Below are positions 920-19,741 of a DNA stretch of 64,000 nt, one piece after another (within the stretch, counting starts at the first letter, position 1; the number at the start of each line of letters is the position of its first letter). This stretch comes from an uncultured Bacteroidota bacterium (GTDB lineage: Bacteria; Bacteroidota; Bacteroidia; Bacteroidales; VadinHA17): NCBI GenBank assembly GCA_903844815.1, contig CAIMVD010000375.1, forward strand, positions 8,918-72,917. Reading direction: 5' to 3'. Under the pieces are notes generated by a model. The model was given only the letters and a program-made list of their open reading frames with translations. It searched no databases and was not told the origin of the DNA. Position numbers and translations under genes: made by a program.

Positions 920-3900
920 TTATTTCCTGATAATGCTTATGACCCCTGATTTCGGATCTGTTCCGTCGTGCAGGTAAAGTACATAGTGATAAGAGTCCGT
1001 GGCAAGCTGTTTTCCTTTATAGGTTCCATCCCATGGATCAGAAAGAAGATTCTTTGAAGTATAAACAAGTTCTCCCCACCTGTTGTATACAAAGACCTCA
1101 GCCTTCGGGAACAGATCAATATTCCTGATCTTCCAGGTATCATTGACCCCGTCGTTATTTGGAGTAATGACTTCGAGTACCTCGAGGCAATTCTGGGTGC
1201 CCGTTACTCCGACCTCTGCTACTGCCGATCCTGCACATCCGTTTTTATCGGTAACTACTGCACTGTAAGTTCCTTCACCAATTCCGGTTCTGGTAAGACC
1301 TGTTAAACCATCGGACCAGATTGCATTATAAGGTACAGTACCTCCGGTGACACTAAGGGTAATACTTCCGTCCTTGTCACCCGGACATGTTGCTGATTCT
1401 TCAGTATGAGAAACCGATATTGCATCAGGCTGCCCTATTGTAACGGAAATATTTGCAGTACAGAGTGATGCATCAGTAACTGTAACAGTATAGACTGAGG
1501 CTGCTAGCCCGGTGAATGTTCCATCCGCCTGTAAAGCTCCTCCGTTCACACTATAAGAATATGGTGATGCTCCTCCGCTTCCGGCAACAGTAACTGTCCC
1601 GTTGGACGAACCAAAACAGGCCGCATTTGCCTGAGAAGTGATCGATCCTGCAAGTTTTGCTGCCGGCTGGGTTACTGTAAGGTCAATTGTCGAGGTGCAA
1701 AGGTTCGAATCCTGAATAGTTACAGTATATACACCTGCTGAAAGTTTCGAGAATGTGGACGAAACCTGGTACTCACCGCCTCCTGTCCTGTATTTGTAAG
1801 GAGGCATTCCTCCTGCACCCTCAACAGTAATACTCCCTGTGGAACTCCCAAAGCAAAGTACATTGACCTGAGATACAAGGGCAACTGAAACAGCATTGTC
1901 CGGCTGAGATATATCAACAGTAACATCTGTAGCGCTGAAGACTGCATCCATAACTGTAATAACATACGATCCTGCGGCAAGACCGGAAAAAGTACCCGAC
2001 AACTGATAATTTCCCGTTCCAAGCTTATACTTGTAAGGAATTACTCCACCGCTTCCTGCTATGGTAACACTTCCTGTAGCTGTACCAAAGCACTGTGCTT
2101 CGTTCTTGGAAACAATAGCTGCAATCAGGGAAACATCAGGTTGTGTAATATTAACGTCAATCAACGAGGTACACAGATTGTTATCCTGAACAGTGATTGT
2201 ATAATTGCCCGCCTTGAGCGATCCAAAAACGCCCGATGACTGGTAGGCTTCACTGCCGATCTTATAAAGATATGCCGGAACTCCACCGGAACCGGAAACT
2301 GTAACGCTGCCATCATTATTCCCAAAGATCGACGCATTAGTCTGCGACACAATCGTTCCCGTCAGGAGAGCTGGTTCTGAAACAGTTATTGATGCAATCG
2401 AAACTTTACAGCTATTAGCATCGGTCACTGTTACACCGTAAACACCTGCCCTCAGACCGGTTTGATCACCTGCATCCGGAACGGTACCTGCACCGGTCCA
2501 AGTGTAAGTATAAGGAGTTGTCCCTCCGGTTAAAGTAATATCAATCGCGCCGGTAGCGAGTCCGTTGCAAAGTATATCGGTTTTGGTATAGGCAGCAACA
2601 GGATTCTGGTGGAAGATAACGTTCATCTCATCAACCGATGGTGTACAATATGAATTGCTGATTGTCCACCGGAGTGTATACAACACCCCGGTTGTTCCTG
2701 TAAACACCGAAGCCGGATTTAAAGGAGCGGTAATTGCCCCCCCTGATCCCGATACAATTGTCCATAAACCATTGCCCGTTACCGCAATATTGGCGGCTAG
2801 TGTTGCAGAAGTTATCCCGCACATTTCCGAACCGGTCTGATCAGGACCAGCATTAGCAACAGTGGTTGTTTCTCCGAATATTACATTAATATCCGCCGTT
2901 GATGCTGAACATGAACCGTTGCTGATTGTCCACCGCAGAAAATAGGACCCGTAGGCATCGGCAGTAAATGTAGAATTTCCGCTGACCGAAGAACTGAAAG
3001 TCCCTGTGCCACCACTAAAAATACTCCAGGTCCCTGTCCCACTGACTGGTGAATTGCCTCCAAGAGGCTCGCTGACCTTCGTTCCGCAGAAACTTAATGG
3101 AGTAGTATTAATAACCGCTGTGGTGGGTGTCTCATAATAATTTACGGCAACCTGGGCAGAACTTGCTGTACATGTGCCACTGCTAATAGTCCAACTGTAA
3201 ACATAAGCTCCATAAACTGAAGCGGTAGCCGTTGAAGAGCCTGAAGCAGGTTCACTGAAAACTGTTGTGCCGGGACCCGAAATCTTGCTCCAGGTTCCGG
3301 TTCCTGTGACAGGATTATTACCTCCTAATGATCCGCTAACCAGGGTTCCGCATTGATTTAAAACCGTTGCTGCTACACTTGCCGTGGTAGGCAGTTCATA
3401 GTAGTTGACCGTCACCTGAGCTGATGATGGAGAACAGGTTCCGCTGGTAATCGTCCATTCATAAACATACGTGCCGTATAATGAAGCAGTTGCAGTGGAC
3501 GCGCCTGAAACAGACGAACTATATATAGTTGTTCCCGGGCCTGATACCTGACTCCATGATCCGCTGCCTGCAACCGGAGTGTTACCCCCAAGTGAACCGG
3601 AGACAAGCGTGCCGCAATTATTAAGTAATGCACTTGTCACTGATGCCGTTGAAGGCGTTTCAGAATAATTAACAGTGACCTGGGAAGATGATGGGGAACA
3701 GGTACCATTTGTAATAGTCCATTGGTATACATATGTGCCATAAACTGTTGCGATGGCAGTTGAACTTCCTGAAGTTTGAGCGCTGAACGATGTCGTTCCC
3801 GGGCCTGAAACCTGACTCCACAAACCTGTACCCACAGAAGGATTATTGCCTCCAAGCGGTCCGCTGGAAAGTGTTCCGCAATAGTTAAGCGGAGAAACAG

Positions 3901-6900: not shown

Positions 6901-9900
6901 TTGCACCTCCAATAACCTGAGTTGTTGTTCCTGCAAAAATGACAGTCGATGCCGGACTAAATCCCAATCCGCTGTTAAACTCACCTGTGTTATAACGCTC
7001 CATTGTTCCGAGTATTATCAGGCTGCTCCTGTTTACACTGTTGTCAAGCAAAGGCCCGTCTATTACAAGCCGTTTGCATACTGTCAGCAGCTTGTTGGGA
7101 AGTATTCTTGTTCCTGTTCCCGTAAACAAAATGTTGGGTACGCTGTTGAAAAGAGATTCAATTATTGTATACGTTCCTGATCCTCCGTATTCAATTGTTC
7201 CGTTACCAGAACAATCCGTGAAGGCAGAATAGTTACCACCCGGGAGATTTCCTCCTATCAGGTATATCGTTCCATCGCCGTCGACAACACCAAGGTTGTG
7301 ACTGAAATTCGAGGGGTCAACTACAAGCCTGTTATTAATAGTAGTTCCCAGTGAATAGATATTATTGATGTCTGTTGTAACTATATGATTAATTATAACA
7401 TTTGCGCCATTCGGGCCGCCGTCAGGGCAGGGAGGCGATGATCCGACAGGAATCCAAACTGTTTTATCCGACCAGTTGCCGTCTTTGATCGTAGTATAAG
7501 CAGGAACCTCTTCAGGTATTGCAGATCCCTTCCCGGCTGTATAATCACCGGTCAGGTTACTGACAGCTGAATTATTAAAGAGTATCTGGTGTGAAGTCTC
7601 ATTGACATTATCTGTTGCAGGTCCGGCAGGTGCTTCATACCAATAACTTCCCGGAAGGGCAAGTTTAGCGGCCACATAATCGGATTCAGTCCCTACTACA
7701 TCACCTGCCAGGTATTGCAACTGGATATCGCCATAGAATCCTGTTATGCCCGAACTTCTTATCTGCCAGTAATAGTTCAGTGCATTAAGCGGATCGGTTA
7801 TGCTTGAGTGCCTGCTATTTATTGGATTAACACCTATTGATCCTACTTCGTCACTTGCCAGAATATTGAAGCTGGCAGGTGTGTATTTACCTGATACGCC
7901 AATAGGGAAAACAAACGTCTGCGGCTCTGCTGTGAAGAATTTCACGAGGCCCAATCCGCTGATTACGCCATCGGACTTAATCATCTTCGAAACACTGAAT
8001 GGAGTACCTGTAATAAAACTCTTAGGACTGAGGGTCAATTGGAATTTGCCAATATCCAGAACGCCCAGGTTCATTGCCAGATCGCCCTGCAGACTTATGT
8101 CGCTGTTTACCCTTGCTCCGAATCCGTTATTTAGTTCAAGACGGCCAAATGCTCCCGAACCTGTTACCTGCTGCTGAGCAGAAGCACCGGAAAGGGATAT
8201 CCCGCTGCTTCCGGTATTAATATCGGTGCAGGAACCCTCATTTACCAGGTTGCCAAGGAGAGTTACCCTGTTCGAGCCAAGAACAAAGTTTCCCTGGCTG
8301 ACGGTAAGATTCCGGTTAACAGTGAAACTACCCTCCGTTGTCAGTGAATTGACCGGGGAGACGTTCAGATCAAAGAAGTTGGTTACCGAAGTTCCCTTTA
8401 TCGACTGGAATCCTCCGTTGAAAGTTGTAAGATTCGTACCGTAATTATATGATCCATAGTTTGTAAGATCCCCTTTGAGTGAGACATTCAGATTATTCGA
8501 ATTGAAGATACTGTTTATATTGCTCAGGGTAAGAGAACCATCGAGTACCAGAGGGCTAACCATCAGATTAACTGTAGCATCGCGTGTGGCAGCAGCTGTT
8601 TTACCAGTAATTGTAATATTATTCAGATTAATATTAGCATCGAGCGAATAGGTCTGAGGGGCATCAACTACAGCTTCACCTGCCGGAACGGGAGTGAAGA
8701 AAATTGTTCCTCCAGTGACCAGAGAGCTTGCAGGTCGCAGGTAAAGGTCACCGAAAGTTGTTCCTCCTCCCCTTACGATGGTTAGTGTACCTCCCGACAT
8801 ATTGAATGAGCTACCTGGGTTAAGTATTTCAAGCTTCGCCTTTGCAGGAAGATAATTATTACCGTTAATGATAACATTACCAGCCGACTGGATGTAGCTA
8901 AGAACTCCATTTGTGGTTGCTGCAGGCCTCCTGATCTGGCCGTTTACCATCAGTTTCCCTCCTCTTACTTCAATAGAAGAAGCGCCGCTACCGGTGTATT
9001 CAATGTCATTGTCATTGGCATTTGTACCTGATACCGCCCCGACATAAACGTTTCCGTTAACCAGGGTAAGCTTGCCTCCCAGGATCAGGTCGCCGTTATT
9101 ATTCGCCGAATTTCCTATCAGAATGTTTCTGTTGCCCGTATTGGACGGAAGATCGACATAGAGCCCTGCAGTTGCCGGAATTGTGAACGGAGTAATGGTT
9201 GATATTGTAAAATCCGTGCCAGGATTGACTCTCGTATACTTCAGTGTACCATTTTGAAGGGTCAGCCAGTTGTCAGCAGGAGTTGTAATTACACCAGACA
9301 TGTCAATAGTAAGAGTTGATGCCTGAGATGATCCCTTGTTAACGGTCAGCTTACTGAAGATGATAGAAGGATTGCCTCCGGTATTTGTAACAGAGGCGTT
9401 ATTCGGCCCGAAGAATGTTACCGGGATTACAGAGAAATCGCACTGCGCAATTATCTGATAGGCTGGAGGATTCAACAAACCATTCGAATTATTTATCAGA
9501 CTTCCGCCAATTGAGATCTGCTGATTAAAGGAATTGGAATTAAAAGTTCCTATTCCGGAGAAGGTCCCTACTACAAGGTTACCAAATACAACTATATCCT
9601 CGGCAAGAGTACCATTTCCTACCCAGATTAGCGAACCGCCCTGCATCAGAAGGTCTCCTTTTATTGTAATTGTTTTTGCAATAACTGTGCTCGGTATTGT
9701 AGGATAGTCATTTTCCCAGGTAGGACAGAACCAGGAGTCTGTATTCTGGCCCCTGATAACGAGGTTACCATAAATAGTAAGATTATGATTGGGGAAAATA
9801 ATGTTTGATCCTCCCAATGGAGAAAGAATCAGATTACCATAAGTCATTACCCCGTTCGGCAGCCAGTAGGTTGTGCCGTACTCTGTATTAGTTGAATAAA

Positions 9901-12900
9901 GTTCTGTTGTACCCAGATTTATATTGAAATCAGAGAAGTCGCCTGAGGGGAACTGGAAAGTACTTCCTGTAGTCCACGAAGTAGCAACCCTGAAGTTCCC
10001 GTTTCCGTTTGGATGAGTGAGTACCATTCCAAAGTTTGAACCCGGGTTAAAACCTGCATCCAGCACGGAACCTTTTTCAATCTGAAGGCTAGCACAACTG
10101 CGGGCATCGGTATTTGCTACTGTATTTGCAGTGGCAAGGTAGACAGAATCCCTTCCTCCTATTATCACAATATCGCTGGCACCCGGAATAGTTAAAGCAG
10201 CTGCTCCTGAATGTTTATTAACAGCATCGGTCGACCAGGTTGCAGGGCTGCTCCAAAGCCCGCTTCCCACTCCAGTGCCATTAATCCTGCTATAATAAAT
10301 TGAAGGTACCCCAAACGGACTTAGAGGGGTGTCGTCACCGGCAGTATAGTCGCCATCAATCACCAGAGAGTTTTCAAGAAATGTACCTGCACCCGGTTCG
10401 CCGATGATCTTATTTACCTCATCAACATCGTTAATGGTTCCTTTAGCCCAGGTATTGGTAGGAATATCAAACCTGGCTGCCACATATCCATCCTCGGTAA
10501 TGTTGGCACCTGTAACCACATTCGACTGGGAAAAAGTATAACCATGGGTTACTGTTGCCGTTCCAAGGCTGAAGCCTGAGGATTTTGTCCTCCAGAAATA
10601 GGTGAGCGATCTGCCTGGTTGTGTTACATTGGGATGTCCGAAATTTACAGGGATAACGGTTATTGAACCATAAGAAGCAGGTACTCCGTTAAGGCCAACC
10701 GAAGCAGGAGTGTAATTGACAACCCCAACAGGAAAATTGAATGCACCCGGAGCAGCATACACTTTGGTAAGTCCTCCGTCTCCCGTGTTTCCTGAAGTCT
10801 GAAGATATCTCGAGGCAAAGAGACCATTACTGCTTGCTATTGAAGCATCCTGGCTGAGTTTTAAATTAAAAGTTCCGATATTGAAAAGCTTATCGGTCAG
10901 AAATGTGAGTGCTCCGTTTAAGGTCATGTTTGCGGCCAGTGATACGGGAGCAGCACCTGCAGATGTATTGTTCAGATCAACATTTCCGAATGATCCTTCA
11001 CCGCTGATCTGCTGGGGTACTATGCCGTTTAAGGATATTTTTCCTGTTCCGCTGTGTATGCCGGAGTTAAAAACGTCTCTTAAAACATTTATAGTATTCC
11101 CGTTATCTTTCAGATTACCAAGCACAAGCCGGAAATTATCATTAACCGTTATTGTTTTCTGTGTCCCGGCAAATTCAAGGCTTTTTCCTGCCGGTTTGTC
11201 GATAGTAAATTTGTTAAGTGCAAGCGGGGCAGCAAGATTTACTGTAAAGATCTGATCGAGCTTACCGTTCAGAATAGTTGTATTGGTTCCTGTATTGTAA
11301 CTTGTCCCGGCTGCAATTGTAAAATTACCACCGACACTCAGGTCAAGGTTATTGCAGGTCAGCACACCTGATGTCAGGTTAAGGTTTTTGAGAACTATTA
11401 ATGGGTTAGTGCTGAGCTGAACGGTTCTTGTTCCGCTAAGCCTGCTGATCAGCAGGTTGCCAAGAGGAGAAGTACTGTTTACAAGGTAATCGCCATCGGT
11501 AGCAGGTACTGAACCTGTTACAGGAATAATCTCAATTGTACCACCTGTAACATTTATATTGGCAGCTGAAGATTTTACGTCGAAAGCTTTCTGTTCGCCG
11601 GCAGCCGATCCGCAGACATCAAATATGCGGATTGTTCCGCCTGACATTGCAAAAATATTTGTTGTATTTTCAAGGTTGAATGTCCCGAAAGCAGGATTTA
11701 CGCCATTGGCAGCACGAAGAGTATTAAGTGTGGCAATTGATATATCCCTCAGGCTTGGAATCGAACTATAATCCGTCGGCGTTCTCTGGAAACGTCCTCG
11801 AAGTACCAGCGTCCCGTCTGTTTGGGTGTACTGGGCTGCAGAACCTGAAGTCGAAAGGAATTGCTTGGTATCGATGGTTCCTCCGTCAACGAGAATCTGT
11901 CCCGATCCAACACTGGAGGTTATTATTCCTGCCGACTCGCGGGTTGAAAAATAGCCATCGATTATATGCAATTTCCCATATACTTCTATAGCACTGCTTC
12001 CTCCAAGGGTAATTCCCATTGAAGCATTATCAGGAGCTGTAACTGTGTAAGCGGTATTTACCTCCCTGAAATCGTCCGATGTAGAGAATACAATGGCATC
12101 TACCCCATTTAGCATAAGGGCTCCGTTTGAAGGAATATAGTAATCAGAATTTGGCGATCCTGCCGTAACTCCCTCCGAAAGTGAAGGAATAATGACCGAG
12201 CCTTCAAGAATCAGGCTCCCGGTGCGTATCCACAAGGCCTTCCTCAGGTTGGCATTACTGCCTGCTACTTCACCGGTCAGGGTATTTGCTCCAAACAGCC
12301 TGAAATTCTTATAGTCGGTTGAATAAACCGTAAGTTTGTAGGTCTGGTCAAGTCCCTTATCGAGAACAAGATTATAAAAATCAGTAATCCCGTTACAGGT
12401 TATCGTATTGTCAGTTTCACCCTGGAAGTACACTGATGCCGCCCCGGAGGTTGCACCGTTTAGCACAGGAGGGAAGGCACTATAAACAGGGTATTGAAGA
12501 TTTGTAAATCTAACTGTGCCGTTATTTGTAAAATCTCCTTTTATGATAACCGTATGAAAATAAGTGTAGTAGTTGATAAAAGGAGCCGTTCCTCCTGCAG
12601 TAACTCCTCCTATTGCAGGATTAGTAACTCCTGTTCCGACAGAAACGGAAGCACCTGCATCAACAGTAACTCCTCCGCTTATGGTAAGGCTGAGTTTCGC
12701 AGTTGAAGCATTGTCATTTATACGGAATGATCCCGATTTGACGTAGAGATCACCATTCAGCAAAAGGTTTCCAAGCTGTGTAGCAATAGCGGTATTTGTA
12801 TTGATTTTAAGATTATTATATACCGTTTGGCTCACAGGAAGTACAAACGCAGATGCGTTGTAATACTCGGTTGTGCCACCTCCCGGATTTATGAATGTAT

Positions 12901-15334
12901 TTACCGTAATAGCCGGGAAATTAACAGAAGCAAGCTGCAAAGTACCTTGTCCGCGCAATGCCGCCAGCGTATTTGTAAACCTGTTTACGACCTGGTTCAG
13001 AAAACCTCCGGATTCAATTGTAATATCGAGCCCGTCGGAAGTAATGTCACTTGAAAGCGAGACAGTGCGTCCTGAAAGAATGACAACCTTATCATTCAAA
13101 CCTGGAACAGTGTTACCAATCTGAAGGGTTCCGCTCGGGTCCGAAGTCCAGGTATTCGGCGTATTCCAGTCACCTGTCTGGTATGAATAAAATGTGACCG
13201 AAGCCGCAGCTGTCCAGTAAGTACTGCCTGTAGTAATATTCGTTGTCCCGGCAATAGTGAAGGAGTTCCCCCCGAAGCTGGCTGTCCCTGATGGAACCAG
13301 CCAGTTTCCTGTCACCGGCTTGTACCAGATATTTGCCGGAGCATTGCTTATCTCTGCCGGATCATAGTTGAAGGTTGCTGTAATTGTTTTACCCGCAACC
13401 GAGGTGCTGACATCCCAGTATTTCTGCACAAAATTCGATGCTGCTGACACATCCCTGACTGAAAGTACCTTAATGGTTCCTGTTGTTCCACCAGAGATGG
13501 CAGTGATACTTACGGGAGAATAGTAACTTCCACCTCCGACAGGGAATAAAATTGGCAGTGTAGCGGCAGCATTACGAACAAGACCTCCGGTTCCGTCGGT
13601 TTCAATCATGGCGTTTGCGCTGAAGGCTCCCTGTATTGCATTAGAAGCGTTATTGCTGATTGTCAGAGCCGATGAACCCAGACGAAAGGAACCGGCATTA
13701 AGAGTAAGGATATTGCTAACCGTCGAATTCCCCTGTAGTGACTTAGCGCCTCCGCCTGAAAATGCAAGGTTCTGATACGCTGCGGAACCGAAGACCTGCT
13801 GGTCTCCGCTCCTGTTATAGTTAACTGTACTTAAAGCGCCGGTCGTGTTAAAAGTTGAAATTGCATTGGCAACTCCGCCCAGATTAAGCAGGTGAGCCCT
13901 GCCCGCATCACTGTTCATTGTGATGGTGCCGGTTACGTTTATCAGGTCGCCAGTGAGATTAAGTATCTTAGGGGTTAATGTGCCGAAATCCAGAATGCCA
14001 TCAACCGTTGTGTTGCCTGCAATGTTTATTGTCGTTGCGAAATTTCCCAGGCTCAGGGTTGTAGCATCGTTGATAACAAGATTATTGATGACACTAAAAT
14101 TTTTATGTATTGTTTTTGTAAAATTGCCGTCGGTTGTAAGGTTATAAAATGTTACCAACCCGGTCCCTGCTATATTGGATACTGATTGTACCGACCCTGT
14201 AAATGCAAAAGTCCCTGAAGTCGCCTTGAACGGATCAGCTGTTGTACTTGTAATCTGAAAAGTAATTCCGCTGAAGCTGATATCAGCGGAGGCCAGAACA
14301 GAGGCTGGAGTTGTAATAAACAGATCTCCGCTTAGTAGGAAGGGTGAGGTTCCGCTTAATGGCTGGCCCGGATTTGTTGAGAATGTGATCGATCCCGTAC
14401 CTGTCTTTGAAAATGTTCCGTTGTTTACTATACCTCCCCTGAATTCGTAGACAGGATTGGCGCTGTTAATAAATTGTCCGTTGCTGTTTACGGTAATAAG
14501 CTGGTCGAACCGGTTCAGTCCGGCATCGTTATCGTCGTTTAGAGTGCCGAAGGCGTTTAAGTTTGTTGTTCCGTTGACGGTAAGGTTAAAACCGGCCGGA
14601 TTAATTGTGTATAAATTCGTTGCAGTGGAACCTGCAACTGATAAATTACCCTGAACAGTAACGGCGCCTGTAAAGGAAGAAGTTACAGGTACAGTTAACA
14701 GCGGACAGTTTATTGTAAGGTTTCCGAAAGCCTGATTGAAACCCGTTGGTGCTATTCCTGTAACCCCGGTAATAATACAATTCGACGTTGCAGCCCATGT
14801 TGCAGAAGGGACGACACCACCGTCCATGTAATGAATATAAGACGAACCGGCTAGGAAAGATAGTGCAGCAGGTGAAGTAATGATTCCGTTATTTACTATT
14901 GTACCGCTAGTTGCGAAAGCAGCAGACACTGTAATAGTATGACCTGTCAAGATCACAAGGTAATCTCCTGCTGATGGAGCTGCAGCAGCATCAGCGGTTC
15001 CCTGTTTGCTGAACGACGAACCAGTAGCTGAGATCAATGCACCATTCTGAAGGGTAAAGGAATTTGCATCAGTAACAGCAGCAACAATTCCGATGAAGCC
15101 ATTTGCAGAATCAAAAACAGCATCATTAACTGATATTGCTCCCGCGCCGGAATTTGTTCCTGTAGTACTTCCTGCGGAAATGGTTATGGTTCCTGTTCCC
15201 GGGACAAGATCGGTCCAGGTACTTGTTGCATTGAGGAAGCCCGAGGCCTTGCTAACCTTTTGTGCCAGGGAACTGGTTTCGGAAAAACAAAAAAACAACA
15301 CCATTAATGCTGATATTGTTATTGTTTTCATCAT
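920..15334 (-). CDS. Giant (~4800 aa) T9SS-secreted surface adhesin, SprB-like
   Basis: One uninterrupted ORF, 920..15490 (4856 aa). I moved the start to the ATGATG at 15334 because MMKTITISALMVLFFCFSETSSLAQK is a signal peptide and the 52 upstream codons do not look like protein. The body is G/T/S/N-rich and beta-helix-like. The C-terminal part has PKD/Ig-like domains, SprB repeats and a type B CTD. Confidence 0.92.
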   Translation of the reverse strand: MMKTITISALMVLFFCFSETSSLAQKVSKASGFLNATSTWTDLVPGTGTITISAGSTTGTNSGAGAISVNDAVFDSANGFIGIVAAVTDANSFTLQNGALISATGSSFSKQGTADAAAAPSAGDYLVILTGHTITVSAAFATSGTIVNNGIITSPAALSFLAGSSYIHYMDGGVVPSATWAATSNCIITGVTGIAPTGFNQAFGNLTINCPLLTVPVTSSFTGAVTVQGNLSVAGSTATNLYTINPAGFNLTVNGTTNLNAFGTLNDDNDAGLNRFDQLITVNSNGQFINSANPVYEFRGGIVNNGTFSKTGTGSITFSTNPGQPLSGTSPFLLSGDLFITTPASVLASADISFSGITFQITSTTADPFKATSGTFAFTGSVQSVSNIAGTGLVTFYNLTTDGNFTKTIHKNFSVINNLVINDATTLSLGNFATTINIAGNTTVDGILDFGTLTPKILNLTGDLINVTGTITMNSDAGRAHLLNLGGVANAISTFNTTGALSTVNYNRSGDQQVFGSAAYQNLAFSGGGAKSLQGNSTVSNILTLNAGSFRLGSSALTISNNASNAIQGAFSANAMIETDGTGGLVRNAAATLPILFPVGGGSYYSPVSITAISGGTTGTIKVLSVRDVSAASNFVQKYWDVSTSVAGKTITATFNYDPAEISNAPANIWYKPVTGNWLVPSGTASFGGNSFTIAGTTNITTGSTYWTAAASVTFYSYQTGDWNTPNTWTSDPSGTLQIGNTVPGLNDKVVILSGRTVSLSSDITSDGLDITIESGGFLNQVVNRFTNTLAALRGQGTLQLASVNFPAITVNTFINPGGGTTEYYNASAFVLPVSQTVYNNLKINTNTAIATQLGNLLLNGDLYVKSGSFRINDNASTAKLSLTISGGVTVDAGASVSVGTGVTNPAIGGVTAGGTAPFINYYTYFHTVIIKGDFTNNGTVRFTNLQYPVYSAFPPVLNGATSGAASVYFQGETDNTITCNGITDFYNLVLDKGLDQTYKLTVYSTDYKNFRLFGANTLTGEVAGSNANLRKALWIRTGSLILEGSVIIPSLSEGVTAGSPNSDYYIPSNGALMLNGVDAIVFSTSDDFREVNTAYTVTAPDNASMGITLGGSSAIEVYGKLHIIDGYFSTRESAGIITSSVGSGQILVDGGTIDTKQFLSTSGSAAQYTQTDGTLVLRGRFQRTPTDYSSIPSLRDISIATLNTLRAANGVNPAFGTFNLENTTNIFAMSGGTIRIFDVCGSAAGEQKAFDVKSSAANINVTGGTIEIIPVTGSVPATDGDYLVNSTSPLGNLLISRLSGTRTVQLSTNPLIVLKNLNLTSGVLTCNNLDLSVGGNFTIAAGTSYNTGTNTTILNGKLDQIFTVNLAAPLALNKFTIDKPAGKSLEFAGTQKTITVNDNFRLVLGNLKDNGNTINVLRDVFNSGIHSGTGKISLNGIVPQQISGEGSFGNVDLNNTSAGAAPVSLAANMTLNGALTFLTDKLFNIGTFNLKLSQDASIASSNGLFASRYLQTSGNTGDGGLTKVYAAPGAFNFPVGVVNYTPASVGLNGVPASYGSITVIPVNFGHPNVTQPGRSLTYFWRTKSSGFSLGTATVTHGYTFSQSNVVTGANITEDGYVAARFDIPTNTWAKGTINDVDEVNKIIGEPGAGTFLENSLVIDGDYTAGDDTPLSPFGVPSIYYSRINGTGVGSGLWSSPATWSTDAVNKHSGAAALTIPGASDIVIIGGRDSVYLATANTVANTDARSCASLQIEKGSVLDAGFNPGSNFGMVLTHPNGNGNFRVATSWTTGSTFQFPSGDFSDFNINLGTTELYSTNTEYGTTYWLPNGVMTYGNLILSPLGGSNIIFPNHNLTIYGNLVIRGQNTDSWFCPTWENDYPTIPSTVIAKTITIKGDLLMQGGSLIWVGNGTLAEDIVVFGNLVVGTFSGIGTFNSNSFNQQISIGGSLINNSNGLLNPPAYQIIAQCDFSVIPVTFFGPNNASVTNTGGNPSIIFSKLTVNKGSSQASTLTIDMSGVITTPADNWLTLQNGTLKYTRVNPGTDFTISTITPFTIPATAGLYVDLPSNTGNRNILIGNSANNNGDLILGGKLTLVNGNVYVGAVSGTNANDNDIEYTGSGASSIEVRGGKLMVNGQIRRPAATTNGVLSYIQSAGNVIINGNNYLPAKAKLEILNPGSSFNMSGGTLTIVRGGGTTFGDLYLRPASSLVTGGTIFFTPVPAGEAVVDAPQTYSLDANINLNNITITGKTAAATRDATVNLMVSPLVLDGSLTLSNINSIFNSNNLNVSLKGDLTNYGSYNYGTNLTTFNGGFQSIKGTSVTNFFDLNVSPVNSLTTEGSFTVNRNLTVSQGNFVLGSNRVTLLGNLVNEGSCTDINTGSSGISLSGASAQQQVTGSGAFGRLELNNGFGARVNSDISLQGDLAMNLGVLDIGKFQLTLSPKSFITGTPFSVSKMIKSDGVISGLGLVKFFTAEPQTFVFPIGVSGKYTPASFNILASDEVGSIGVNPINSRHSSITDPLNALNYYWQIRSSGITGFYGDIQLQYLAGDVVGTESDYVAAKLALPGSYWYEAPAGPATDNVNETSHQILFNNSAVSNLTGDYTAGKGSAIPEEVPAYTTIKDGNWSDKTVWIPVGSSPPCPDGGPNGANVIINHIVTTDINNIYSLGTTINNRLVVDPSNFSHNLGVVDGDGTIYLIGGNLPGGNYSAFTDCSGNGTIEYGGSGTYTIIESLFNSVPNILFTGTGTRILPNKLLTVCKRLVIDGPLLDNSVNRSSLIILGTMERYNTGEFNSGLGFSPASTVIFAGTTTQVIGGATGDFSGTNKLNNLEIKNPSGLNIGTNGFVEVNGQLLLTSGIIHTTATNRLVMLSTSSSAVLPAGGSEDSFVDGPLVKNIINGGSFVFPVGNGIIKGHDFSVISSAGSTMAWTVECFIPNPTAKLLASPLKASNTQEFWSVSTPVAASGRVKIGWDPLSALTPLMVPNGLDDMRVAEFISGAWNELPSLATGDLDNGYVSSTTGVAISSTPSNFTTATVTIPEARASFTSPKPVCGTAGIPVSFTSFMDISLNYTLNYSIDGVPQAQITVTSPLYILPTPVPGAYKLTGFAYNNGTHAGVVDSRVVNAYALPTVANAGADRSICGVSGLTLSGNSAAPYSGLWTKVSGPGGTFIDNTRYNTYFTGILGKSYTLRWTISNVTCNSSDDVVISFPVEAAMPSNFMSAPTQVCQGSSGNVYTVPAVGGSTYNWNYTGTGHTINGTGNSVTIDFGPAATSGVLSVTASNACGTSAARTIAITVNTLPAAAAGTDRSVCAGSPATLGTAAVAGSTYSWTSVPAGFTSALSNPEVSPLVTTTYTLVETNTVSGCSKSNSVILTVTSAPTVTISYSGSPFCSTDSNIQHVNISGTGTYFGGSFTSDPGLSVSPLTGDITPSTSTPGVYVVTYFIPAAGGCLAASAFTSVTVTAAPVSTIAVSPLNYCNVLISGPLGGNTPAMGAGIWSQVSGPGTSSFSDQASGNSTATVTQPGTYIFRWTVTYSTCAPSVSDVTVNYYPSAAVADPTLSFCGTLTSLSLGGNSPGPGAGLWSQVSGPGTTVFSDPASGSSTATATVYGTYVYQWTVSGGTCTSTNAEVAVEFNPATTDATIAVFPLNFCATLTSGSLGGNTPATGTGIWSQVSGPGTTIFSTPSSGSSTATASQYGTYIYRWTITTGDCVPGTAEVTVNYSDTPTPASVAFSSLSSCGTLISSSLGGNSPVTGSGLWTQVSGPGTTVFSLPSVGTATATASVYGTYVYQWTISNGICTPGSAQVTMEFIASPTASVVAVSPLNYCGTLSSGPLGGNNPSVGTGLWSQVSGPGTTSFSAQTSGSSTAIATVYGTYVYQWTITNGTCSPSSSQVTVNYSETPSTASVTSALLNNCGTLVSGSLGGNTPVAGSGSWSQVSGPGTTIYSSSVSGASTATASLYGTYVYEWTITSGTCSPSSAQVTVNYYELPTTASVAATVLNQCGTLVSGSLGGNNPVTGTGTWSKISGPGTTVFSEPASGSSTATASVYGAYVYSWTISSGTCTASSAQVAVNYYETPTTAVINTTPLSFCGTKVSEPLGGNSPVSGTGTWSIFSGGTGTFSSSVSGNSTFTADAYGSYFLRWTISNGSCSASTADINVIFGETTTVANAGPDQTGSEMCGITSATLAANIAVTGNGLWTIVSGSGGAITAPLNPASVFTGTTGVLYTLRWTISNSYCTPSVDEMNVIFHQNPVAAYTKTDILCNGLATGAIDITLTGGTTPYTYTWTGAGTVPDAGDQTGLRAGVYGVTVTDANSCKVSIASITVSEPALLTGTIVSQTNASIFGNNDGSVTVSGSGGVPAYLYKIGSEAYQSSGVFGSLKAGNYTITVQDNNLCTSLIDVNITQPDVSLIAAIVSKNEAQCFGTATGSVTIAGSGGVIPYKYKLGTGNYQLSGTFSGLAAGSYVITVMDAVFSATDVTVDISQPDNAVSVALVSQVNVLCFGSSTGSITVEGAGGMPPYKYRTGGGEYQVSSTFSKLSAGVYTVTIQDSNLCTSTIDLTVTQPAAKLAGSITSQANAACFGSSNGTVTVAGSGGASPYSYSVNGGALQADGTFTGLAASVYTVTVTDASLCTANISVTIGQPDAISVSHTEESATCPGDKDGSITLSVTGGTVPYNAIWSDGLTGLTRTGIGEGTYSAVVTDKNGCAGSAVAEVGVTGTQNCLEVLEVITPNNDGVNDTWKIRNIDLFPKAEVFVYNRWGELVYTSKNLLSDPWDGTYKGKQLATDSYHYVLYLHDGTDPKSGVISIIRK
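923..1189 (-). other. Type B (gliding-motility-associated) T9SS C-terminal sorting domain of the giant adhesin
   Basis: The last 89 aa read CLEVLEVITPNNDGVNDTWKIRNIDLFPKAEVFVYNRWGELVYTSKNLLSDPWDGTYKGKQLATDSYHYVLYLHDGTDPKSGVISIIRK. The (I/F)TPNGDG.ND...I, V.I.NRWG..V and W.G hallmarks are present. Confidence 0.85.
1190..2608 (-). repeat. Six tandem SprB repeats (~72-80 aa each) inside the adhesin gene
   Basis: A recurring block C(N/F)G...G(S/A)(I/V)T(V/I)..(S/T)GG..PY.Y......Q.S..F..L.AG.Y.(V/I)TV.D.N.C appears six times between QNPVAAYTKTDILCNGL and GVTGTQN. Coordinates come from counting 473 aa back from the CTD. Confidence 0.8.
2609..4963 (-). repeat. Nine tandem ~88-aa PKD/Ig-like domain repeats (264-bp DNA period) inside the adhesin gene
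   Basis: Protein consensus: ..L..CGTL.SG.LGGN.P..G.G.WSQVSGPGTT.FS...SGSSTATA..YGTY.Y.WTI..G.C......V.VNY. The DNA core cc.gg.cctga.acctg.ctcca recurs near 3270, 3534, 3797, 4061, 4325, 4588 and 4845. Confidence 0.85.
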
Positions 15335-15790
15335 TGGGAAGATGACAGTTTTCCTTAGTTTCGCTATTCTGATACCGGGAAATGAAAAACGCTTCGCTTT
15401 GAAGAATAAAATCAAACTTAAGTCTGATTCCGGGTTAATATGTTCCATCTTGGTCAGGTTCGTTTCGTTAAAAAAAATGCAATCATTCAAAAATCAAACA
15501 TGAGAACAACAAATACCTGAAAGGATTTGCTGAAACTCATAGCTAAAAAAATAAGTTGTTATGCGAATTTAATAAATAAACATATATGTAACACAATAAT
15601 TATCATGAGTTTTCTCTATATTTTGACGACTTATAAACATTTGTCGGCTAACCATTCCCCTGCTTTGGTAAAAATAATCTTTTTTTATCGCATAATGAAA
15701 CAGGATGGCATTTAAGTTTAAACTTAAGCCCGGACACAGCAAGGGACTATCCTTTCTAAAGAGATTTTAAATAAATAATAAACGTTTTTT

Positions 15791-15831: not shown

Positions 15832-15906
15832 GGGGGTTTAGCTCAGCTGGTTCAGAGCATCTGCCTTACAAGCAGAGGGTCGGCGGTTCGAACCCGTCAA
15901 CCCCCA
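15832..15906 (+). tRNA. tRNA-Val (anticodon TAC), 75 nt, CCA not encoded
   Basis: Hand-folded cloverleaf: acceptor GGGGGTT/AACCCCC, D stem GCTC/GAGC, anticodon stem TCTGC/GCAGA with loop CTTACAA, T stem GGCGG/CCGTC with loop TTCGAAC, discriminator A. Confidence 0.92.
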
Positions 15907-15909
15907 CAA
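15860..15909 (+). repeat. Direct repeat copy 1 (attL-like): 3' 47 nt of tRNA-Val plus 3 nt
   Basis: tctgccttacaagcagagggtcggcggttcgaacccgtcaacccccacaa is identical (50/50) to 17647..17696. Confidence 0.9.
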
Positions 15910-15918
15910 ATGAATATC

Positions 15919-15960
15919 AAGCACTTACAATGGTAACACAGAGTAAGTGCTTTTTTATTT
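15919..15960 (+). terminator. Rho-independent terminator after the reconstituted tRNA-Val
   Basis: 10-bp stem aagcacttac / gtaagtgctt (15919..15928 and 15943..15952), followed by ttttttattt. Confidence 0.7.
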
Positions 15961-16007
15961 GCACACAATTTTCACACTAACCTTATAAAAACCGTTTCGC
16001 AACAGCA

Positions 16008-16469
16008 TTAAGCAATACTGTTATCTTGACCATCTTGAGAAATAGCATAAGCTATTTTAAGTTTTAATTCCTCAGAAAAATCATCTTCAGTCAGAATAGA
16101 TGTGATTATTTCATGAAGCAATTCCTTATCAATATTATTAGCAGCTACATGGTAACTGATAATTTCCATTCTATATAGAAACTCTTTGGCAGCATTGAGA
16201 TAACCATTTTTAAGCAGGAAAATGCTCCCCAGAGTAATGGCAATTCTTTTGTTGCCATCCTGAAAACAATGACTTTTATTAGCAACATAGAATAAGTGAG
16301 TTAGCTTATCTTCAAAGGCAGGGTAATAATCATCGTTCTGAATGTGATCAAGAGCTGCATTTAAGGAGTGTAGGTTTAGTATGCCAATGGTACCCCCTCC
16401 GCTTACCTCAATGGTTTTTTGATGCAGAGTAACTACCTCATTGATATCGTCTATGTACACTATTGGCAT
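16008..16469 (-). CDS. doc: Death-on-curing (Doc) family toxin, Fic-fold kinase
   Basis: 153 aa. The motif HCFQDGNKRIAI matches the Doc signature H.F.D(A/G)NKR (P1 Doc has HIFNDANKRTAL). The upstream stop and this start overlap by 1 nt (TAATG). Confidence 0.8.
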   Translation of the reverse strand: MPIVYIDDINEVVTLHQKTIEVSGGGTIGILNLHSLNAALDHIQNDDYYPAFEDKLTHLFYVANKSHCFQDGNKRIAITLGSIFLLKNGYLNAAKEFLYRMEIISYHVAANNIDKELLHEIITSILTEDDFSEELKLKIAYAISQDGQDNSIA

Positions 16470-17479
16470 TATTCACTCTCCTTTAATCGTTTGAAGACAT
16501 CCTCTGCTTCCTTTAATTGTTTTTCAAAGTCGACACTTCGATCTCCAATGAATTTATCAAAATCAGCAGGACGAACTGATGTGACGTATTCTTTTAACTT
16601 ATGGTGAAAAGCATCTCTGAAAAAATTATCCCTCGAAGCCATTTTTATTCGTGCATCTTCAATATGAGGTAACTGCGCGGGATGGTCTGTAAAGTCTTTA
16701 ACAATCTGGTCAACTTCAATAGGTAATAATTTGCGACCTAAGGCTTTTGATTTTTTTTCAATTTCGTAGGCAATGCCGGCCTCAAAAGAAGCTATAAGCT
16801 TCAAAACCTCTGCATACATTGTATCTCTTGCATTTTCATTATCTGCCAGTTTCAGGATTTGCTTGTACTCTTTGGCATTTTCACGGAAAATTGCCTGATA
16901 AATCTTGTCGGTATATAGAGAGTACTTATAATTACCGAGGTCAACATATTGATTAAGAGAATTCGTGAAATCTTTTCTGTATTTATGTTCCCTTATGGCG
17001 TTTATTAAATAATCCTCATCCCTGCGATTAATATATTTTGTGCCTCCTCCGGTTTTTTCGTTTATACTATGAATTACTATGTCGAGGATTTTACTTCTTA
17101 AATGACGAGCCTTTTCACTTTCGCTAAGTAACATGGATAAATTTAGTAAAGCCCTGAAATTGAATAACCCAAGCTGACGGGTTTTGCTCGCCTTATCAAT
17201 GAGGTGAGCAAATTGTAATTTAAAGTTTGTCAGCTGCTTACCTTTGGTTAAAACATATCCATTATGTTTTAATTCAGCTTCGTGTTTTGCAAGATACCGG
17301 TCAATGGTAGAGGTATCTATCTCAAAGAAATTGGCAACCATCTCTTTGGTAAAACGAAATTCACCTTCAAATAACATACCCGGCAAACCTATATACTCCT
17401 GAATTTGTGTTAGTGCGTAACGATTATTAAGTATGTTTTGCCGATCAATATCTGAGTTTGTCAGGTCTTTCATGGTCAT
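16469..17479 (-). CDS. 336-aa putative DNA-binding protein, candidate antitoxin/regulator partner of Doc
   Basis: It lies immediately upstream of doc and is translationally coupled to it. The N-terminal segment FTKEMVANFFEIDTSTIDRYLAKH looks like a helix-turn-helix. The rest is predicted to be helical. No catalytic motif was recognised. Confidence 0.55.
   Translation of the reverse strand: MTMKDLTNSDIDRQNILNNRYALTQIQEYIGLPGMLFEGEFRFTKEMVANFFEIDTSTIDRYLAKHEAELKHNGYVLTKGKQLTNFKLQFAHLIDKASKTRQLGLFNFRALLNLSMLLSESEKARHLRSKILDIVIHSINEKTGGGTKYINRRDEDYLINAIREHKYRKDFTNSLNQYVDLGNYKYSLYTDKIYQAIFRENAKEYKQILKLADNENARDTMYAEVLKLIASFEAGIAYEIEKKSKALGRKLLPIEVDQIVKDFTDHPAQLPHIEDARIKMASRDNFFRDAFHHKLKEYVTSVRPADFDKFIGDRSVDFEKQLKEAEDVFKRLKESE
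17184..17211. repeat. 28-bp imperfect palindrome, copy A (inside the 336-aa gene)
   Basis: ttgctcgccttatcaatgaggtgagcaa matches 17485..17512 at 24/28 positions. The outer arms TTGCTCgCC / GGtGAGCAA are inverted. Confidence 0.6.
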
Positions 17480-17484
17480 ATGAT

Positions 17485-17512
17485 TTTGTTCGCCTCACCG
17501 ATGAGGTGAGCA
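17485..17512. promoter_or_regulatory. 28-bp imperfect palindrome, copy B: candidate operator in the 5' leader of the Doc operon
   Basis: ttgttcgcctcaccgatgaggtgagcaa lies 6-33 nt upstream of the ATG at 17479. It contains the inner inverted repeat CTCACC-n5-GGTGAG. Confidence 0.4.
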
Positions 17513-17646
17513 AATTTTAAGTTTGTATATCAATTTAGTTGACTTAAGCTACAATGGTTTGTAATTCATGTAGTTTTATATTTCTGATTTACAACATCCT
17601 TACAAGATAATAAAATTTAAGTATAAATTATCAAAAGATGGCTAAT

Positions 17647-17696
17647 TCTGCCTTACAAGCAGAGGGTCGGCGGTTCGAACCCGTCAACCCCCACAA
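17647..17696 (+). repeat. Direct repeat copy 2 (attR-like): displaced 3' fragment of tRNA-Val
   Basis: 50/50 identity to 15860..15909. The preceding sequence (..aaaagatggctaat) has no acceptor or D-arm, so this is not a functional tRNA. Confidence 0.9.
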
Positions 17697-17701
17697 TAAA
17701 A

Positions 17702-17736
17702 AACCGGTCATCCCAAGTGGCCGGTTTTATTTTTTG
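17702..17736 (+). terminator. Rho-independent terminator, probably the ancestral tRNA-Val terminator
   Basis: 9-bp stem aaccggtca / tggccggtt (one G-T pair), 7-nt loop tcccaag, followed by ttattttttg. Confidence 0.7.
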
Positions 17737-17827
17737 CTTATCCCGGGAAAATTACTAATTTGCCGAAAGAATGGGTCAGTCAAAACTTCTTATCAAAATA
17801 ACCACATTAGAATATTAATTCTGCCAC

Positions 17828-19741
17828 ATGGAAAGAATGATTCGCCGTATTAAAACTTTTCTGCTGATATATTCAACCATATCATGTTCACTTATCGCCC
17901 TGGGCCAGCCTTCCGTAAAAACTGATTCTTTGTTGATACTGCTTGATAAAACAGAATCTGACACATCTAAAGTTAGTTTGCTTATCCAGCTCTCAGATTC
18001 ATGGATCTCAGATGACATAAAACTCTCTTTGGAATATATCCAGCGTGCCTTATCATTGGCTGAAAAAACCGGTAACACGAAAGTTATAGCGTCAACCCTG
18101 AACAGTATGGCGAAAGTTAGCTTAAGGGCAGGCCTTATCGATATCTCCGCCGATTATTTCAACCGTTACCTTGAAATGATCACAGATAATGGCTCAAAAA
18201 TGGAAATCGGCTATACTATGTTCAATCTGGGTTCAGTAAGGATGGTACTAAATGACTATGACAAGGCAGAGGAGATGTTCCTGAAATCATTTCAGATGAT
18301 AAAAGAATTCTATGCAGAAGCAAACGACTCCGTACCACCAACAGTTATTATAAATTTGTACAACAATCTTGGAATTATTCACAGGGAAAAGAGCCAGCTG
18401 GATGAATCTGTGCAATACCTCAACAACGGGATAAAAAGTGCACGAACAGGTATCGGGTTCGAGCCCGACCTGATTAGGTTGCTGATCAACCTGGGGGAAA
18501 CCCTGATCAAACAGAAAAAACTAAATGAGGCCACTCTGGCACTGAATGAAGCTCTGAGTATCGCCCGAAAAAACAATAACAAGGCGACAGAATCGGCTGT
18601 TTATCTGAGCCTTGGCAATCTGTCAGAAGAAAATGAAAACACAAAAGCAGCATTTGAGTATTACAGAACGGGGTACAGGCTGGCAATACAATTTGGTGAC
18701 GTATCTATGTTACAGGTGATTTCTTATCCCCTTGCTAAACTGTACAAAAAGACCGGGCAGGCTGATTCTTCTTTGAAGTATCTAACCCTGTCAAACGAAT
18801 ATCAGGAAAAACTGAATCTTGAAAAAGCAAAGGACAATCTTTTACGACAGGAGCTAAACGCACAATTCAGAGAGAGGGAACAAGTACTGGAGGCGCGGGA
18901 TAAAAACAGAAAGATATGGGAAATTCTCATATTGTTAATGATAATTGCAATTGCCCTGATATCATTCTATTTTACTTTTAAAAAACTAAGGAAAATCCAG
19001 GCTGATAAGGCCTATATTAAACAGAAGGCGCAGGAACTGAAAGAAATCATCGAGACTAAGGACAAGCTTTTTTCAATAATCGCGCATGATCTGAGGGGAC
19101 CAATAGGCAATTTCATCCCTGCACTGGAACTACTCACGAGTAACAACGCAATAGATGAGAACCTGAAAAAAAGGCTGCTCGCGGAGATGAAAAAAGACTC
19201 TAAAAACACATATAGCCTCCTTGATGATCTTTTAACCTGGGCAGGAATACACGGTAATTCTATTCAGATAACTCCCCAGAACTTTGTACTGAATGAGGCT
19301 CTGATTCAGAATGTTGTACTCCTAACACCAGGTGCCGATCAAAAATCAATCAGTATAAGCATTGAAACTACCGGAATAATAACAGTCTTTGCCGACAAAA
19401 ATACAATAAGTACTGTAGTCAGGAATTTATTGAGTAATGCGATCAAATTTACTCCCATGAATGGCAGCATAACTGTTTCTGCAAAACATAACAGCAGGTA
19501 TTGTGAAGTAACAATTGCTGACAGCGGAGTGGGAATGTCTAAGGAAATTGCTGATAACCTTCTGATATCCCGATCATATTATACCACTTTCGGCACGAAT
19601 GGTGAAAAAGGTTCCGGCCTTGGATTAGCAATATGCAGGGAATTTGTTGAAAAAAACGGAGGTGAGATCTGGCTTGAAAGTGAACAGGGAAAAGGCAGTA
19701 AATTTATCTTCACAATTCCGCTTGAAAAACAGAATATTTAA
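17828..19741 (+). CDS. TPR-repeat sensor histidine kinase
   Basis: 637 aa. Signal peptide (LLIYSTISCSLIALGQP), ~300 aa of TPR-like helical repeats, TM segment IWEILILLMIIAIALISFYFTF, HisKA box FSIIAHDLRGPIGN, and HATPase_c with G-box EKGSGLGLAICREFVEKNGGEIWLESEQGKGSKFIFTIP. Confidence 0.85.
   Translation: MERMIRRIKTFLLIYSTISCSLIALGQPSVKTDSLLILLDKTESDTSKVSLLIQLSDSWISDDIKLSLEYIQRALSLAEKTGNTKVIASTLNSMAKVSLRAGLIDISADYFNRYLEMITDNGSKMEIGYTMFNLGSVRMVLNDYDKAEEMFLKSFQMIKEFYAEANDSVPPTVIINLYNNLGIIHREKSQLDESVQYLNNGIKSARTGIGFEPDLIRLLINLGETLIKQKKLNEATLALNEALSIARKNNNKATESAVYLSLGNLSEENENTKAAFEYYRTGYRLAIQFGDVSMLQVISYPLAKLYKKTGQADSSLKYLTLSNEYQEKLNLEKAKDNLLRQELNAQFREREQVLEARDKNRKIWEILILLMIIAIALISFYFTFKKLRKIQADKAYIKQKAQELKEIIETKDKLFSIIAHDLRGPIGNFIPALELLTSNNAIDENLKKRLLAEMKKDSKNTYSLLDDLLTWAGIHGNSIQITPQNFVLNEALIQNVVLLTPGADQKSISISIETTGIITVFADKNTISTVVRNLLSNAIKFTPMNGSITVSAKHNSRYCEVTIADSGVGMSKEIADNLLISRSYYTTFGTNGEKGSGLGLAICREFVEKNGGEIWLESEQGKGSKFIFTIPLEKQNI

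Follow-up and report, generated by a model that had tools for sequence, protein, structure and literature searches.

A 1.8-kb integrase-less islet at a Bacteroidota tRNA-Val gene carries a predicted Doc toxin operon

Organization of the tRNA-Val locus

The islet described here lies downstream of a tRNA-Val(TAC) gene in a 64-kb stretch of DNA from an uncultured Bacteroidota bacterium (GenBank assembly GCA_903844815.1, contig CAIMVD010000375.1), which is referred to below, at its full length of 64,000 nucleotides, as the window. The islet contains a single two-gene operon, encoding a Doc-family toxin and a presumed regulator, bracketed by two copies of the tRNA 3′ end. The tRNA gene, at positions 15832–15907 of the + strand, is the only one that ARAGORN calls in the window. 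Its anticodon stem-loop, TCTGC/CTTACAA/GCAGA, spans 15860–15876, as read by hand against the ARAGORN anticodon position (15867–15869). A repeat search identified a direct repeat in which 15860–15909 and 17647–17696, both on the + strand, are identical at 50 of 50 positions. The repeat is composed of the last 47 nt of tRNA-Val followed by 3 nt; its left edge falls on base 1 of the anticodon stem and its right edge 3 nt past the tRNA 3′ end. The 28 nt to the left of 17647 are unrelated to a tRNA 5′ half and no second tRNA was called in the window; the right-hand copy is a tRNA-Val 3′ fragment without a 5′ half. A perfect match of 50 nt cannot arise by chance. The sequences diverge immediately on either side of the repeat, which is therefore not part of a longer duplication. 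The original prediction of a perfect tRNA 3′-end repeat at 17647–17696 is thus borne out, with the tRNA end now placed at 15907, and the longer segmental duplication that it had named as a competing explanation is set aside.

Each repeat copy is followed by its own hairpin, as had also been proposed, and both fold with a U-run. The hairpin and U-run behind the left-hand copy (15919–15960), which would be element-borne, fold on the + strand at −19.8 kcal/mol (hairpin 15919–15952, z = −5.8) and on the − strand at −16.9 kcal/mol (z = −3.1). This hairpin would end transcription of the regenerated tRNA on the + strand and probably also that of the convergent Doc operon on the − strand. The hairpin behind the right-hand copy (17700–17736, + strand; hairpin 17700–17728 plus U-run, −16.4 kcal/mol, z = −3.9) would be the host's original tRNA terminator, now positioned behind the displaced fragment. 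A consensus terminator scan flags the 17700 hairpin only and not the 15919 hairpin. The next gene, at 17828–19741, encodes a tetratricopeptide-repeat (TPR) histidine kinase.

The repeats are spaced 1,787 bp start to start, corresponding to one repeat and a 1,737-bp insert. Between them are two minus-strand open reading frames (ORFs), 16469–17479 and 16008–16469, that overlap by 1 nt and form one operon with its own predicted promoter, palindromic operator and terminator. The promoter-like site (17634–17607, − strand, score 10/12) lies within a 123-nt arm (17524–17646) that is specific to the element and would form the P arm of attP. This arm has no homologue among loci L001–L177 (our handles for the sequences compared) apart from contigs of the same lineage. 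Searches of the islet DNA against plasmid and phage collections returned matches to tRNA-Val only, plus one 66% match to a ‘DNA-binding protein’. On a circle, the non-coding parts of the islet (98 + 50 + 167 nt) would be joined into a region of ~315 bp, about the size of an attP site (~250 bp; PMC4383910). This region would also contain the promoter and operator of the operon and the terminator behind the regenerated tRNA.

The heptamer CTTACAA, which forms the anticodon loop and is the presumed crossover segment, recurs on the + strand near both ends of the insert. One extra copy (15924–15930) lies 15 nt after the left-hand repeat, in the terminator stem, and the other (17599–17605) lies 42 nt before the right-hand repeat as part of the 9-mer CCTTACAAG (17598–17606). 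There are 16 copies of the heptamer in 128 kb (the window, both strands), and two within ~60 nt of the ends have a chance probability of ~1e-4 to 4e-4, calculated post hoc. These copies could be additional integrase sites, or a coincidence.

Attachment-site boundary and absence of a recombinase

The left edge of the repeat was compared with integrated elements in IMG/VR, which was scanned with a 32-nt segment running from the anticodon stem to the T-loop of tRNA-Val. The scan returned 41 contigs; neither the exact 50-nt repeat nor a 29-nt stretch of it matched anything in IMG/VR. Sixteen of the tRNA-Val(TAC) matches are fragments that lack the 5′ half, and these belong to five unrelated left-arm families. 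In 16/16 of them, tRNA similarity stops within 0–5 nt of base 1 of the anticodon stem, as it does at 15860 in the window. The ORF adjoining the fragment encodes a tyrosine integrase in three of the four cases tested (L201, L205 and L213), and the fourth (L208) is a provirus/host junction. The L213 integrase contains Arm-DNA-bind_5, SAM_5 and Phage_integrase domains. L213 and L191 come from opposite ends of one 75.8-kb provirus, which is bounded on one side by the full tRNA-Val and on the other by the fragment and integrase. The integrase gene of this provirus lies beside the fragment and reads away from it, and the toxin operon has the same place and orientation in the window. The L205 fragment is identical to the window repeat at 46/47 positions, so integrases able to use the site in the window plausibly exist.

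This arrangement corresponds to the signature used by the Islander algorithm, in which an intact tRNA gene is followed downstream by a co-oriented terminal 3′ fragment (PMC4383910). Here the intact gene and the displaced fragment are both on the + strand, and the tRNA 3′ half would be supplied by the element, as in Islander islands. The boundary at the anticodon stem, shared with L201, L205 and L213, places the islet with Islander class ‘A’, the anticodon-centred attachment sites used by about half of mapped islands (PMC4383910). Since five integrase-bearing families share the left edge of the repeat, the two copies are very likely the genuine attL (15860–15909) and attR (17647–17696) of an anticodon-centred tyrosine-integrase event. 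The assignment to a tyrosine recombinase made by the original prediction is strengthened by this comparison.

The islet differs from Islander islands in having no tyrosine integrase and in its length, 1,787 bp as against a criterion of 2–200 kb; lacking an integrase and falling below the 2-kb floor, it would be rejected by Islander by design. Profile searches (Pfam, NCBIfam, PADLOC and PHROG) confirmed that the interval contains just the two co-oriented genes originally described, neither of which is a recombinase. The search for a recombinase was extended to the whole window. Three tRNA-Val-specific integrases used as tblastn queries gave only noise, and Pfam searches of 28 large ORFs found kinases, transporters and glycosyltransferases and no integrase family among the families listed (25 of 55 matched). 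In the absence of a recombinase, the islet is non-autonomous and of the cis-mobilizable element (CIME) type.

The PDC-M59 operon

The downstream gene of the operon (16008–16469, − strand) encodes a 153-residue Doc-family toxin. It matches Pfam Fic (3.6e-8) and TIGR01550 DOC_P1 (3.7e-12), both with scores above the family cut-offs, as well as the PADLOC model PDC-M59B (4.8e-42) and the Doc-like toxin family phrog_577. The sequence HCFQDGNKR is a kinase-type Fic motif. The operon thus resembles Phd/Doc of phage P1 in the Fic fold of Doc, the H-x-F-x-D-G-N-K-R motif, the overlapping genes and the palindromic operator. It differs in the partner of the toxin, a 334-residue winged-helix protein with no similarity to the ~70-residue Phd/YefM antitoxins.

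This partner is encoded by the upstream gene (16469–17479, − strand; 336 residues) and matches the PADLOC model PDC-M59A over its full length (1.7e-139), with residues 3–336 aligned to positions 1–336 of the 338-position profile. The start codon used by the family is probably at 17473, giving 334 residues. The protein has no Pfam match even at E = 10, no NCBIfam match and no sequence match in the PDB; its sole family match is a weak one to the transcriptional regulator family phrog_2657 (1.3e-5). The AlphaFold model is poor (predicted local distance difference test score 60, from a 16-sequence alignment), with a winged-helix-like region at the N-terminus and a helical C-terminal half. Comparison of the model with the PDB using Foldseek gave nothing below E = 0.01, and the best, weak matches are DNA-binding proteins of the DdrC/MarR type. 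M59A is accordingly presumed, from the model, to be a winged-helix DNA-binding regulator or antitoxin.

M59A is widely distributed. There are 6412 homologues at E ≤ 1e-5, the best 120 of which are at least 68% identical, and 1308 matches at E ≤ 0.001 among cluster representatives at 50% identity. Identity is ~60–93% across 80 loci that we fetched from GTDB genomes, whose records are labelled with several phyla. Exact look-ups of the 336- or 334-residue protein returned no record.

Two palindromes are associated with the M59A gene. The upstream copy, O1 (17484–17523), is located 5–44 nt before the M59A start and is a presumed autoregulatory operator. The internal copy, O2, lies within the coding region as a hairpin-like site reading TGCTCACCTCATTGATAAGGCGAGCA on the gene strand (17185–17210). 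The repeat units that contain them (17484–17523 and 17182–17221) are 85% identical and 302 nt apart. Conservation with the nearest related cassettes extends as far as O1 and no further, homology to L001, L004 and L007 stopping at ~17520. The motif is shared with other free-standing M59 cassettes: a 26-nt palindrome of the form TGCTCRCCTYA…TRAGGYGAGCA is found 30–55 nt upstream of the A gene in 8/75 loci, compared with 0/6650 control windows, and 12/80 loci have a further copy within the A coding sequence. O1 and O2 are probably an autoregulatory operator pair, and the overlapping genes together with the palindrome constitute the predicted anatomy of an autoregulated toxin/regulator operon.

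Both proteins match the PDC-M59 models over their full lengths and the genes are adjacent in the expected order, A then B. PDC labels denote PADLOC ‘phage defence candidates’. No mention of PDC-M59 was found in the literature searched. A related guilt-by-embedding approach has been described by Payne et al. (bioRxiv 10.1101/2024.01.29.577857), in a text from which the term PDC-M is absent. The pair is therefore best regarded as a candidate system whose anti-phage activity is predicted.

A second strain with a filled site

The kinase that follows the host terminator has one close relative, P0122, which is 98% identical at the amino-acid level and is encoded on a Logan contig from SRR26784071. 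From its first base, 31 nt inside the right-hand repeat, this contig (L161) extends into the kinase and SpoIIE genes. A second contig from the same sample (L167) comprises the end of the M59A gene, the Doc gene and the terminator, and reaches 30 nt into the left-hand repeat. A break within the repeat, shared by both contigs, is what a k = 31 assembly of a 50-nt repeat should give, and look-ups of the Doc and kinase genes returned only short contigs that are likewise broken at the repeat. Since both junctions are present, the site is filled in the SRR26784071 strain. An ENA sequence (L163) is identical to the window across attL. The samples ERZ1426769 and ERZ27313536 carry the locus as well.

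The two strains are not equally diverged on the two sides of attR. The flank in L161 is 98.90% identical to the window (38 differences in 3456 nt), with the first differences 2 and 3 nt beyond the repeat, whereas the islet in L167 is 99.90% identical (1 difference in 974 nt). The islet is thus ~10 times less diverged than the flank (P ≈ 3e-4 over all sites, Poisson). At synonymous sites, 0/174 differences in the islet compare with 20/672 in the flank (P ≈ 0.006). Many of the L161 differences are clustered in the kinase gene, 8 within 44 nt (18913–18956) and 12 within 55 nt (19444–19498), a distribution suggestive of short segments imported by recombination or of a hypervariable patch; when these two clusters are dropped, the comparison of islet with flank gives P ≈ 0.03. 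The pattern hints that the islet has been shared more recently than the strains split, with a boundary at the att site, in a sample that is small and with statistics that are modest. The original prediction had taken the undecayed repeats themselves as a sign of recent mobility. That argument is weak, given that only ~0.5 substitutions are expected in 50 nt at ~1% divergence; the contrast between islet and flank gives the claim modest, independent support.

Genomic contexts of M59 cassettes

In the 80 fetched loci, Doc directly follows the A gene in 79, and the contig of the remaining locus (L040) ends 73 nt past A. The most frequent immediate neighbours are the type I restriction-modification proteins HsdS (7) and HsdM (5), followed by AAA_21/RloB, RhuM and DprA. 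No integrase family is present among the top 25 neighbour families, and most M59 cassettes adjoin neither a tRNA gene nor an integrase. A general association of the cassettes with tRNA genes was considered and rejected: a tRNA immediately follows Doc in L074 alone, and that locus has no repeat. A cassette ~90% identical to that of the window, found in 24 contigs from many samples, is packed between genes for the bacteriophage exclusion (BREX) proteins BrxC/PglY, PglX and PglZ and a gene for a Piwi-domain prokaryotic Argonaute, with gaps of 3–7 nt (L168–L177; e.g. L168 5119–9518). Relatives of the pair thus typically reside inside type I restriction-modification or BREX loci, and the islet differs from these in that its pair is free-standing, with its own promoter, operator and terminator, rather than inside a defence operon. 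M59 is rare in phages (three IMG/VR contigs), and in one of these, L166, the sizes of the flanking ORFs suggest a type I restriction-modification context. Many metagenome contigs end 0–300 nt from the cassette (e.g. L001, L002, L009, L052, L057, L062, L063, L066 and L080), which suggests assembly breaks caused by repeats or presence/absence variation at the borders.

Bracketing repeats within 1.5 kb are found in 17/58 loci and 12/76 controls, which is not clearly above background. Tight, locus-specific direct repeats with both copies ≤300 nt from the cassette are enriched, at 6/58 loci and 6/820 pseudo-cassette controls (Fisher P = 4e-5), and 4/56 loci exceed the 99th control percentile of the Smith–Waterman score for bracketing repeats.

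Two loci are possible analogues of a decaying island. In L026 (24–2366), 154-nt direct repeats bracket M59A-B together with a 97-residue remnant of a tyrosine recombinase (1928–2221). A gene that looks by eye like a DUF262-type defence gene follows the bracketed segment. In L054 (5739–14000), a Salinivirgaceae metagenome-assembled genome (MAG), an integrase adjoins a tRNA-Met 3′ fragment outside a 6.8-kb integrase-less segment that carries a SecB-like gene, M59A-B and a DUF3987 gene and is followed by a degraded second tRNA-Met fragment abutting the host sufB gene. L054 has the textbook appearance of a decayed element (CIME) in tandem accretion beside a live one, an arrangement described previously (PMC5704250).

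The other bracketed loci are heterogeneous. In L032, a 59-nt repeat of 98% identity (9846–9904 and 11462–11520) covers the downstream gene, which is DUF2130-type by eye, from its ribosome-binding region to codon 17. The Doc stop codon overlaps the repeat, the intact DUF2130-type gene follows directly after Doc, and the upstream repeat copy continues for ~45 nt as a diverged (~65%) piece of the same gene. In L065, a Cloacimonadota MAG, three repeat copies of 116–181 nt (7898–8078, 9651–9766 and 10351–10531), each with promoter-like sequence, a hairpin and the start of a ~35-residue ORF, separate the M59 cassette from a truncated gene that looks DUF1016-type by eye and from the next gene; this reads as a cassette-array arrangement. 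L049 (Ancylomarina longa T3-2) contains two ~720-nt direct repeats (6363–7086 and 9231–9955), each preceding a cassette, one of them a 304-residue gene without a known family and the other M59A-B. Each repeat is built from ~12 CCTGYTR motifs spaced 20 nt apart and ~7 inverted copies (YAGCAGGAC), with a palindrome in the centre. The motif arrays are followed by a 300-nt stretch, 92% identical between the repeats, that ends in the last ~30 codons of a tyrosine recombinase (…LRFIQEGLGKGSSKTTEIYTHV, then the stop codon). L049 looks like a cassette array joined at a recombinase-associated site. In L017, the cassette lies between two identical 1,694-nt insertion sequence (IS) copies (8258–9951 and 11587–13280) with a transposase that is IS110-like by eye, a layout that resembles a composite transposon.

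Origin and mobility of the islet

Integrase-less, att-flanked segments are a defined class. CIMEs were first described beside ICESt1/ICESt3 of Streptococcus thermophilus; they are thought to decay from integrative and conjugative elements (ICEs) or integrative and mobilizable elements (IMEs), and can be moved when a related element integrates alongside (PMC5704250). The islet is like a CIME in keeping an intact attL and attR without integration and transfer genes. Known CIMEs are several kilobases long, are found at the 3′ ends of protein genes or at tRNA genes in Firmicutes, and have been shown by experiment to be mobilized, whereas the islet is 1.8 kb, carries a single toxin operon in a Bacteroidota-like genome and is known here from sequence alone. 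The original description of the locus as an unusually minimal mobile unit was overstated: the islet is an extreme small example of an established class (PMC5704250), with a mobility that is conjectural. Its small size, intact att sites and PDC-M59 cargo make for a neat case, not an unexpected one.

We favour the view, with a probability of roughly 0.6, that the islet is a non-autonomous, CIME-type element that represents the last stage in the decay of a small integrative island of Bacteroidota at tRNA-Val(TAC). A tyrosine integrase would have inserted the element at the anticodon-centred site of the tRNA gene. The element would have supplied a new tRNA 3′ part and terminator (attL), and the original 3′ part and host terminator would have been pushed 1.8 kb downstream (attR). 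The integrase and other genes would then have been lost, leaving the toxin/regulator operon to outlive the rest; we propose that this module resists deletion because its loss is harmful. Descent by decay from an ICE, IME or prophage is suggested by the M59 cassettes in the decaying islands of L054 and L026. With both att sites intact, an incoming tRNA-Val-specific integrase, from a phage, ICE or IME, could still excise the islet or carry it along.

Several observations weigh against this view. No traces of an integrase pseudogene or other debris lie inside the islet, so the case for decay is drawn only from analogues. Carriage on an island is not the usual state of M59 cassettes, as judged from their neighbours described above. 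The lower divergence of the islet argues, with modest statistics, against an old, vertically inherited dead remnant, and the comparison takes L161 and L167 to come from one genome. No empty-site allele was found: a scan of metagenome contigs for the kinase gave relatives of ≤45% identity, a 42% homologue (L162) is not syntenic with the window, and the one close strain is filled. No circular junction and no cognate or helper integrase were found in our searches. The empty-site junction attB is predicted to read …GGTTCAGAGCA/TCTGCC…CCCACAA/TAAAAAACCGGTCATCCC and the circle junction attP …AAAAGATGGCTAAT/TCTGCC…CCCACAA/ATGAATATCAAGCACTTAC; across the 50-nt repeat, these can be resolved by reads and not by assemblies. 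Finally, since tRNA-Val genes occur in tandem in related genomes, there is a small probability that the right-hand copy derives from a broken tandem gene, as considered below.

The strongest alternative, which we consider less likely, is that the islet is an active minimal hitchhiker, a selected satellite composed of the Doc operon and the ~315-bp attP that is moved in trans by the integrases of tRNA-Val phages or ICEs and is not a decay product. The cleanness of the islet fits this explanation, with a promoter and operator, two genes, a terminator shared with the tRNA, intact arms and no pseudogene debris, as do its low divergence up to the repeat edge and the extra CTTACAA copies 15 and 42 nt inside its ends. 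Beyond this locus, the explanation is consistent with the enrichment of tight bracketing repeats around M59 cassettes, by both the count and the score comparison, with the L032 repeat, by which the DUF2130-type gene behind Doc regains its 5′ end, and with ~90% identical cassettes in wholly unlike contexts. However, none of the attP circle, the empty site or a helper has been observed, the arms have no homologue elsewhere in the sequences searched, and no second copy of the element was found at another site or in another genome. The bracketing repeats elsewhere are also of different kinds (a gene 5′ end, intergenic sequence, cassette arrays and IS copies) and concern ~7–10% of loci, and the cross-strain statistic is modest.

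An extension of this alternative, which we consider doubtful, is that PDC-M59 Doc cassettes include a lineage of integrase-pirating satellites, each an operon with ~300 bp of attP, that insert into gene ends. The targets would be the tRNA-Val 3′ end here and the DUF2130 gene 5′ end in L032, with integrases provided by passing phages or ICEs. Such a lineage would account for the excess of tight repeats, the low divergence of the islet and the hopping of cassettes between defence loci.

It is improbable that the right-hand repeat is instead what is left of a tandem tRNA-Val(TAC) gene, with a cassette that arrived by illegitimate or homologous recombination now standing in place of the spacer and of the second gene's 5′ half. 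Full tRNA-Val(TAC) genes do occur in tandem, ~100–235 nt apart, in L198 and L211, and, as expected of tandem copies, the right edge of the repeat all but coincides with the tRNA 3′ end. A deletion would, however, have to end on base 1 of the anticodon stem by chance (~1 in 40), at the very boundary of the five integrase-bearing families, and the element-borne terminator directly behind the first tRNA is as in integrative elements.

Slightly less probable still is a Campbell-type, RecA-dependent crossover, without a site-specific recombinase, between the chromosome and a circle that held the cassette and had captured a 3′ fragment of tRNA-Val, with 50 nt of identity. The outcome would be identical (target, insert, target fragment), and the 59-nt near-identical block of L032, with its ~45 nt of diverged homology, fits capture driven by homology. 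Against this, an identity of 50 nt is barely long enough for RecA to recombine efficiently, and the circle would need a tRNA fragment with an integrase-type boundary, which presupposes an att-bearing ancestor. The idea that M59A is itself a novel recombinase, making the islet autonomous, draws on its unusual conservation, its predicted DNA binding without an assigned family and the movement of cassettes between contexts, but is rejected as very unlikely: the database and Foldseek results given above and the predicted winged helix and helical bundle point to a regulator, the conserved palindromes fit an autoregulator, and most cassettes are in tight operons with no room for att sites.

If the islet is a decayed island, it illustrates how small an integrative island can become with both attachment sites kept, the survivors being non-coding DNA the size of an attP and one toxin/regulator operon, a cargo expected to resist deletion. 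Island finders with a size floor of 2 kb and a requirement for an integrase miss such islets. The contribution of integrase-less, att-flanked islets to the persistence of toxin–antitoxin and candidate defence pairs at tRNA hotspots may therefore be underestimated, and incoming elements may pick these islets up again. In addition, the locus offers a free-standing, naturally insulated version of PDC-M59 that would be convenient to clone and test.

Flanking genes

The left flank of the tRNA gene is occupied by a single ORF of 4,856 codons (920–15490, − strand) with many internal repeats, which looks like a giant protein of the cell-surface or adhesin type. A search of 5.8 billion proteins with the N-terminal 347 residues gave 2 weak matches and no orthologues. 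On the right, a 71-residue ORF (17638–17853, + strand) runs through the displaced tRNA fragment and the terminator; it is a called gene in one public assembly and is almost certainly spurious.

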